Sequence record: PQ435593.1
DNA: 45,245 nt
Strand: one strand, 5' to 3'
Origin: Escherichia phage vB_Eco_K-01
In this document: positions 7,914 through 8,042 of the stretch, piece by piece
Layout of the letters: every line of letters starts with the position of its first letter
Position numbering within the stretch: position 1 is the first letter of the stretch
Made by a program: the position numbers and the translations under genes
Notes under the pieces: model-generated
Database searches by the model: none
What the model was told of the DNA's origin: nothing
What the model saw: the letters and a program-made list of their open reading frames with translations, nothing else

Positions 7914-8042
7914 AATAGACTTTGACCCTTCCGAAAGCGTCAGCGGAACTACACTCAAGTGCCTAATGGCACGCGTTGCGTTCCCTGCCGCTCCGCGGTC
8001 GCTTGCGATATCTCACAAGCTCAGTGAAGCTTAGCATATTTT
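7914..8042 (+). other. conserved non-coding element R1 (candidate structured RNA; paralog of R2)
   Basis: About 130 bp with long identical blocks shared with 40419-40549 (CCCTTCCGAA, GCGTCAGCG, AACTACACTCA, CGCGGTCGCTTG, CACAAGCTCAG). An internal hairpin differs in sequence between copies but keeps its pairing. Ends in a hairpin followed by a T-rich tract. No conserved ORF. Confidence 0.4.

Follow-up and report, generated by a model that had tools for sequence, protein, structure and literature searches.

Two paralogous promoter-RNA cassettes at the heads of minus-strand operons in a Kagunavirus: a structured leader RNA family with a possible role in antitermination

Introduction

Phage HK022 carries two paralogous two-stem RNAs, putL and putR, directly after its two early promoters (PMC9378689), and phage lambda serves two operons from two cis sites, nutL and nutR. 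In this study, we describe a comparable pair of elements, R1 and R2, in the genome of Escherichia phage vB_Eco_K-01 (sequence record PQ435593.1; 45,245 nt), the whole of which is referred to here as the window. The window belongs to the genus Kagunavirus, subfamily Guernseyvirinae, and is near-identical to the Escherichia phages phiEc3 and K-02 of the same genus, with 99.7-99.8% identity over the R1 region. When phages are isolated for therapy and biocontrol of E. coli and Salmonella, Guernseyvirinae (Kagunavirus, Jerseyvirus) are among those obtained most often. We found no published account of late-gene control in this subfamily, and no paper in the Kagunavirus literature mentions a small RNA. 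A first-pass annotation of the window, made from the letters alone, had pointed to R1 and R2 as paralogous non-coding repeats under selection on structure and had offered a small RNA, an antitermination or processing leader and a binding platform for a phage regulator as candidate roles. Of these three, the antitermination or processing leader turns out to fit the anatomy of the repeats best.

Results

R1 (7913-8056) and R2 (40419-40561) share 79% identity over 147 bp (blastn E=6e-26, small local set). Searched with a covariance model derived from relatives, the window yields just two copies, each of them on the minus strand, at 8022..7913 with 105.6 bits and at 40526..40419 with 128.6 bits. 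The third-best match in the 45 kb reaches only 13.7 bits. The paralogy is real and far beyond chance. Both copies had been located by the first-pass annotation, although the similarity runs about 15 bp further to the right than it had been drawn, to 8056 and 40561. It comprises a promoter, which marks its limit, and an RNA core, continues weakly for ~60 nt and leaves the downstream hairpins outside. The comparative evidence establishes each repeat as a cassette of a predicted sigma-70 promoter and a structured RNA of ~95-110 nt from the predicted transcription start, read from the minus strand. The R1 core (type A, ~110 nt, 7913..8022) begins at or next to the predicted start, and the R2 core (type B) spans 108 nt (40419..40526). 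Neither core was overlapped by a family of Rfam 15 at the gathering threshold or at E<=5. On this basis, R is classified as a structured RNA family without an Rfam match and with its own conserved promoter, of the kind of a promoter-proximal leader RNA of phage operons.

Copies in relatives were collected by BLAST of phage records, two pattern scans of viral collections, one metagenome scan and examination of capsid-protein loci. This yielded ~100 copies with 40 distinct cores, which fall into eight types, A (R1 of the window), B (R2 of the window), C, C', D, E, F and G, with type G and the strongly divergent type F of SETP3-like Salmonella phages being recovered by the covariance model. Practically every Kagunavirus and Jerseyvirus genome that was examined contains R2. 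Between the window and Salmonella phages it is 95-100% identical, compared with 65-98% for the flanking coding sequence; this conservation of type B across Kagunavirus and Jerseyvirus is counted among copies from sequence-pattern scans, and in SETP3-like phages the divergent type F occupies the R2 site. R1 is limited to a subset of Kagunaviruses and is more variable (73-100% identity). Type C' was found at the R2 site in one and at the R1 site in the other of two IMG/VR contigs (L047, 3300045988_039442, and L054, 3300045988_014597), each time with the flanks specific to the site, so that the cores can be regarded as interchangeable modules. This distribution also points to recombination or gene conversion between sites or between phages.

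Beyond this group, the two viral-collection pattern scans and the metagenome scan returned only Guernseyvirinae-like contigs of ~41-45 kb plus chance matches, and the covariance models had no match in the distant relatives with 46-86% capsid identity from the capsid scan of a viral collection. One distant relative (L158, capsid 84% identical) carries ahead of Rz, at 1873-2170, a GC-rich leader of ~300 nt that looks unrelated and contains several hairpins. It has the short strings GGUCAAACAGAC and UAGCGUUAAGC in common with R and may be analogous or very distantly homologous to it. No sequence similar to R was found in 5,426 complete E. coli genomes, and a host origin is rejected.

The absence of a conserved open reading frame, as noted from the window alone, held in the relatives. 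Near-identical copies measure 107, 108 and 109 nt, indels between types are not multiples of three, and small open reading frames are called differently by different annotators, with spurious ones placed across R in the records of K-02, UTI89UKE1 and Snoke; coding potential was consequently rejected. Nor is the duplication recent, at 79% identity, and it takes in no coding sequence.

As minus-strand RNA, all types can be folded into one common structure, in which a hairpin, H0, starts 1-2 bases from the 5' end and is followed by GACCG and a long interrupted hairpin. The latter consists of the helices CCG/CGG, GGNGCG/CGCN'UU, CAG/CUG and a 5-bp helix, an internal loop with a conserved 3' side (UGAGUGUAG and variants) and a tip hairpin of 4-6 bp, the sequence of which is arbitrary; the long hairpin is followed by UUCGGAAGGG(C/U)C. 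The unpaired blocks ACCG, UGAGUGUAG and UUCGGAAGGG are invariant and kept across types and genera. In R1, the predicted H0 (GCUUGUGA-GAUA-UCGCAAGC) occupies 8001..8020 of the minus strand and includes one pair reading U·G on the minus and C·A on the plus strand, while the long hairpin (CCG/CGG, GGAGCG/CGCUUU, CAG/CUG, GGAAC/GUUCC, internal loop and tip) extends over 7931..7998 and its tip over 7959..7972. The minus-strand fold of R1 has a predicted energy of -45.2 kcal/mol (z = -2.9). In R2, fold and pair counts place H0 (GCUUGU-GAAGUAUGA-ACAAGC) at 40504..40524, the long hairpin at 40437..40501 and the tip hairpin (CGGGAC-GUAA-GUCCUG as RNA) at 40462..40477, again on the minus strand. The tip stems of different sequence that both still pair, which had first drawn attention to the repeats, are present in plus-strand reading as GTGCC-taat-GGCAC in R1 and GGAC-ttac-GTCC in R2 (40464-40475), and the tip sequence differs again in relatives, where variants include GUGC/GCAC, CACGU/ACGUG and CGGGCG/CGCCCU.

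The paired positions are kept across these copies. In a hand-made alignment of 28 distinct rows, with a mask over the H2 region of types D and E, where the register shifts, 92.7% of cells are paired, compared with 29-41% if the 3' partners are slid; eight pairs are changed on both sides, and the covariation score of 0.209 (0.057 after shuffling) was reached by none of 500 shuffles. After types F and G had been added in a model-fitted alignment, 94.4% of cells were paired, 18 of the 29 pairs were changed on both sides, and the covariation score was 0.383 versus 0.136. In helix 3, the tip, six of seven pairs are changed on both sides in the hand-made alignment. A-U, C-G and U-A are all seen at the N-N' pair of the second helix, and H0 is GCUUGU/ACAAGC in most types and ACGCU/AGCGU in type F. 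Types D and E, which had been left out of the model seed, score 62-85 bits. We conclude from this pattern of substitution that selection acts on the fold and not on a protein.

Immediately upstream of the fold, in the orientation of the RNA, each copy carries the same promoter pattern on the minus strand, TTGACT, 14 nt, TGc and TAAGCT at R1 (8056..8028) and TTGACT, 14 nt, TGa and TAAGCT at R2 (40561..40533), and the full pattern occurs in the window exactly at these two places. Among 48 distinct upstream sequences (103 instances), little or no variation is seen in the hexamers, in the TG at -15/-14 and in the 17-nt spacing, whereas the sequence of the spacer drifts. Even type F retains this arrangement, with the letters T(A/T)GA(C/T)T, 14 nt, TGn, TACGCT. 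The arrangement agrees with an extended -10 sigma-70 promoter in its -35-like hexamer, a spacing of 17±1 nt, TG at -15/-14 and a -10 hexamer with A2 and T6. GAGCUUGUG starts 6-7 nt past the -10 hexamer, and the predicted transcription start lies ~7 nt beyond the -10, at the first hairpin. Each copy accordingly has a predicted strong host sigma-70 promoter with a near-consensus -35 and an extended -10.

At R2, the -35 is overlapped by a perfect 16-bp palindrome, AACTATTCGAATAGTT (40560..40575, centred at about -41.5), which is kept in nearly all R2 copies and absent at R1. For its half-site ACTATTC, 4.7 occurrences would be expected in the window and 14 are found, most of them within -10 regions of early promoters. 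The palindrome could bind one regulator with which the phage changes from early to late expression. The early-looking units themselves are preceded by a repeated promoter-like motif, TTGCAC-N17-TACTATTCA, at 7716-7747 (minus strand), 31182-31213 and 40628-40659 (both plus strand), with weaker copies at 6431-6448, 11409-11426, 11453-11470 and 14364-14381 (minus strand). This motif reads as an ordinary sigma-70 promoter and matches the 'phage promoter' consensus reported from PHIRE for fBC-Eco01 (PMC9825357). A candidate regulator of the promoters considered in this study is a 56-aa HTH_17 protein (Pfam E=3e-10) encoded divergently from R1 at 8162-8332 on the plus strand, elsewhere annotated as 'excisionase and transcriptional regulator', with no integrase annotated in the phage. 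In RNA-seq of phage K1B4, a gene for a helix-turn-helix domain is among only four early genes (PMC12645636) and may be its counterpart.

The pairing of R is strongly asymmetric between the strands. When both readings are compared over the hand-made alignment, 89 cells that form G·U in minus-strand RNA become A·C in plus-strand RNA, and a single cell shows the opposite; overall, pairing at these positions falls to 81.8% in the plus-strand reading. For all 31 of 31 distinct cores, the minus-strand RNA is predicted to be 8-15 kcal/mol more stable than the plus-strand RNA. As duplex DNA or a cruciform under constraint would show no such difference between strands, the selected object is the minus-strand RNA, and we conclude from the pairing data that R is an RNA read from this strand. 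Selection on structure, as originally proposed for the repeats, was thus borne out for an RNA fold, while the cruciform that had been offered beside it is disfavoured, and for the same reason so is a platform for a DNA-binding phage protein. Accordingly, we consider it very improbable that R acts at the DNA level as a cruciform, a regulator platform or a replication origin with the G-rich transcript as R-loop primer, even though both copies sit between divergent promoters, R1 adjoins replication genes, the palindrome adjoins the R2 promoter and the RNA strand appears G-rich by eye. Besides the strand asymmetry, the universal copy, R2, lies in the structural-gene region outside the replication module, and the palindrome does not occur at R1.

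The direction of the RNA also bears on its supposed 3' end. Both repeats had been described as ending in a hairpin followed by a T-rich tract, and this sequence, an AAGCTC-N5-GAGCTT inverted repeat with a T-rich run, is indeed present, but it consists of the -10, discriminator and A/T-rich spacer of the minus-strand promoter. An RNA ending there would have to be read from the plus strand, against which the G·U asymmetry, the folding energies and the promoter position all speak. Neither is the terminal hairpin conserved, since its stem rests largely on the self-complementary AGCT shared by the -10 and H0, and in type F the -10 hexamer is complementary to a different segment, which means that the types do not share a homologous hairpin. 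A plus-strand small RNA of ~130 nt with this end, for which a weak promoter-like sequence (TTCACA, 18 nt, CATATT) overlapping the R2 end might be invoked, would turn the 89 G·U cells into A·C mismatches and worsen the fold by the 8-15 kcal/mol given above. It would also lack a conserved plus-strand promoter upstream, where the flanks of R1 and R2 are unrelated, and the variation of its T tract (ATTTCT, ACTTTT) is what one expects of a promoter spacer; we assign it next to no likelihood.

The operon layout of the window was read from the annotation of K-02. Minus-strand unit 1 runs from 7693 through small genes, holins, endolysin and terminase, across the window ends and on to portal, head morphogenesis and a Hoc-like gene, ending at 40917. 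Unit 2 starts with the Rz spanin at 40308 and contains scaffold, major capsid, neck and major tail genes, to ~33496, and unit 3 comprises tail genes with a start at 31074. As recognized in the first-pass annotation, both repeats stand at the head of such operons, R1 ahead of unit 1 and R2 ahead of unit 2. Terminator-like sites on the minus strand are found directly after the R2 leader and within both operons, at 6738..6717, 42480..42465 and 37884..37863, which is where read-through would be needed; an additional one, at 33491..33472, lies at the end of unit 2.

The conserved core itself has no terminator, and the nearest hairpins follow 65-105 nt further downstream, outside the R1/R2 similarity, which argues against the discrete ~130-nt RNA that had been envisaged at first. 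In R2, the core is followed by a highly conserved spacer of ~65 bases (40353..40418) and by hairpin t (40333..40352), both on the minus strand. Hairpin t, GCCCUGC..GCAGGGC and then UUUACUUAU, is terminator-like. In the window and in type B phages it has a 7-8 bp GC stem with UUUACUUAU directly after it, and the stem is kept by compensatory changes (GCCCCGC/GCGGGGC, GCCCGGC/GCCGGGC, GCCCGAC/GUCGGGC). It ends 25 nt before the Rz start at 40308 and therefore leaves no space for another promoter, and no conserved promoter-like element besides R2 was found between the preceding unit and Rz. It follows that messages for Rz, scaffold and capsid must begin at the R2 promoter and cross t. Two further candidate elements were rejected, namely a second promoter in the R2 leader (TTTACT, 16 nt, TATGTT), whose spacing is lost in type F, and a leader peptide or start-stop element, where a Shine-Dalgarno-like GGAAGGG is followed by a UUG that is lost in three relatives (L034, L144/L145) and opens frames of anywhere between 1 and 19 codons.

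Downstream of R1, the leader (7750..7912, minus strand) contains a second long hairpin around GGGGUGGGC-UAAA-GCCCACCC, which has no U tract, and the early promoter at 7747..7716, of the TTGCAC-N17-TACTAT type, follows ~270 nt downstream of R1, before the first gene at 7693. In type D and E phages, R1 is followed by a different hairpin, GGUGCC-UUCG-GGCACC, with a U-rich tail and a (CTCA)n repeat 5' of it. This repeat is present in 3-6 copies downstream of R1 in L034, L037-L041, L045, L048, L059, L077 and L107, and the internal loop of type D and E cores, GAGUGAG, is exactly complementary to CUCACUC. At the corresponding position, types A and C carry CUUCACUC, which is complementary to GAGUGUAG in 7 of 8 bases. 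Such complementarity could reflect long-range pairing. Phage K1H (L108) has at the R1-equivalent place (34877-34992) a near-consensus promoter, TTGACA-17-TAAAAT, together with a copy of the hairpin-t stem, GCCCCGC..GCGGGGC, in opposite orientation.

Unit 3 also has an RNA near its start. At 31163..31099 on the minus strand, int-alpA RNA (RF02996) is matched with 36.6 bits, against a gathering score of 35.8; the match begins directly after an extended -10-like promoter, TGcTAGAAT (~31164-31175), ends in AUUUCCUUU and stops 25 nt before the tail-chaperone start at 31074. Promoter and match together thus give the third minus-strand late unit, too, a promoter and a short structured RNA at its start.

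Discussion

Because no terminator is shared within the duplicated unit, the cores swap between sites and R2 is the sole route into the capsid operon, we infer that R is the 5' module of long minus-strand operon transcripts rather than a separate gene. The main alternative to such a module is a self-contained, abundant small RNA of ~190-215 nt, which would end at the downstream hairpin and act in trans, with R1 as an extra copy. The apparently strong and constitutive promoter, the hairpin at the extreme 5' end, which is typical for stable RNAs, and the invariant unpaired blocks, which could serve as binding or seed sites, would all suit such a molecule, as would the location of R1 upstream of an operon that already has its own promoter. 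A hairpin with a U-rich tail does follow R2 and a GC-rich hairpin follows every R1, but these hairpins lie outside the duplicated cassette and differ between the two sites, those of R1 are without a U tract, and in type F the tail past t is weak. Furthermore, with no other conserved promoter for Rz and capsid, some R2 transcripts must continue, and by eye no complement of the conserved loops is common to both leaders. We therefore regard such a small RNA, whether directed at targets of host or phage or at a protein, and with host takeover or anti-defence as examples of its use, as possible but unlikely.

Among the functions of a 5' module, we tentatively favour a cis-acting antitermination leader, working alone or with a factor, in analogy to put and nut. 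This preference is founded on two considerations. The structure and its invariant unpaired blocks exceed the needs of a stabilizing hairpin or an RNase III site, and two paralogues heading two long terminator-containing operons reproduce the arrangement of putL/putR and nutL/nutR. In such a model, the folded nascent RNA would stay with its own RNA polymerase or load a factor onto it, and the modified polymerase would resist hairpin t ahead of Rz as well as the terminator-like sites at 37884..37863, 42480..42465 and 6738..6717, so that only transcripts from the R promoters would reach the distal late genes. The mode would be like that of HK022 putL/putR if no protein is involved and like that of lambda nutL/nutR if a protein is required.

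The first of these considerations also separates antitermination from the quite unlikely reading of R as a processing or stability module, in which the long imperfect hairpin would be an RNase III-type or other nuclease site, comparable to the R sites of T7 or the leader of lambda N, and the 5' hairpin would protect the message, with consequences for mRNA half-life or translation and not for the polymerase. An interrupted duplex of ~25 bp with an internal loop, repeated at operon heads and preceded by a 5'-terminal stem-loop, would suit this purpose, and hairpin t would come to sit near the 5' end of a processed Rz message. RNase III sites, however, tolerate wide sequence variation, while the unpaired blocks of R are invariant across types and genera. 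The likelihoods that we attach to the individual readings do not add up to certainty, and the remainder belongs to functions that we have not thought of.

Several observations weigh against antitermination. With merely UUAGCGUAU following t in type F, and with R1 hairpins that have no U tract, the need for antitermination is not established. The R1 operon has its own early promoter ~270 nt downstream, and R1 is dispensable, being missing from K1H and the Salmonella phages. A factor-free RNA behind a strong constitutive promoter would turn on the late genes from the start of infection, leaving no temporal control. The one published RNA-seq study of a Kagunavirus reports genes only (PMC12645636). 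We found no similarity to put, no boxA common to both leaders and, in the K-02 annotation, no candidate antiterminator protein. Finally, the pair counts given above come from structure-fitted alignments and represent about eight related lineages rather than independent samples.

Whatever its role, the R family deserves annotation, since pipelines now place spurious small open reading frames there, and the cassette is the only conserved promoter-like element before the capsid operon. If the RNA does modify RNA polymerase, it would be a new member of the short list of RNA-only or RNA-centred antiterminators (put, EAR, nut) and a compact portable part to drive long operons. A stronger version, in which R would be a second, evolutionarily independent class of put-like RNA that folds during its synthesis, binds its own E. 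coli or Salmonella RNA polymerase and confers resistance to terminators over many kilobases without any phage protein, appears rather doubtful to us; if true, virulent siphophages would use R to drive their structural and lysis operons in E. coli and Salmonella.

Comparison with known systems

In the lambda N/nut system, with which R shares the use of two cis sites for two operons, boxB has a conserved loop, whereas the tip loop of R varies freely (AUUA, GUAA, GUCA, GUUAA, CUCG). Matches resembling boxA number 11 against 12.4 expected, with none in the R2 leader and none common to both leaders, and assignment of R to the nut type was rejected; the K-02 annotation contains neither an N-like nor a Q-like gene. 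The lambda PR'-6S RNA-tR' region resembles R2 in its constitutive-looking promoter and short leader with a terminator-like hairpin before lysis and head genes. A loading site of the Q or AlpA type was likewise rejected, as the spacer of the R promoter, where such binding elements sit (PMC9371919), is variable. By eye, the only -10-like hexamer in the early transcript is AAGTAT, which is missing from type A, and AlpA of P. aeruginosa uses residues to at least 142 (PMC9371919), while the HTH_17 neighbour of R1 has only 56 aa.

The RNase III sites of T7 share with R the repeated imperfect hairpins at operon heads, the internal loop and the compensatory change. R differs from them in its invariant unpaired blocks and its own promoter and is compatible with them in duplex geometry only. 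The int-alpA RNA, found in the same phage, is like R a promoter-proximal structured RNA before a minus-strand late unit; it forms a three-way junction ending in a U-rich tail, unlike R, and has no sequence similarity to it.

The put RNAs of HK022, which act in cis on the beta' zinc-binding domain of RNA polymerase and suppress terminators with no protein factor, remain the closest analogue, although homology was rejected. In the HK022 segment 24000-34000, the immunity region with both put sites, the covariance model of R2 gave no match at E<=1 and that of R1 none at E<=10, and by eye only the GC-rich GAGCGCGGCGGG..CAGG resembles GACCGCGGCGCGGGCAGG. With ~70 nt, put is shorter than R (~95-110 nt), and it has two comparable stems, whereas R combines a short 5' hairpin with one long hairpin. 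Moreover, put serves the early operons of a temperate lambdoid phage, while R is located at late-type operons of virulent Guernseyvirinae. Nevertheless, both systems have two paralogues per genome, placed downstream of sigma-70 promoters that head long terminator-containing operons, and in both the RNA is a two-stem structure with bulges and conserved unpaired bases, which in putL, as in R, begins at or next to +1 (PMC9378689).

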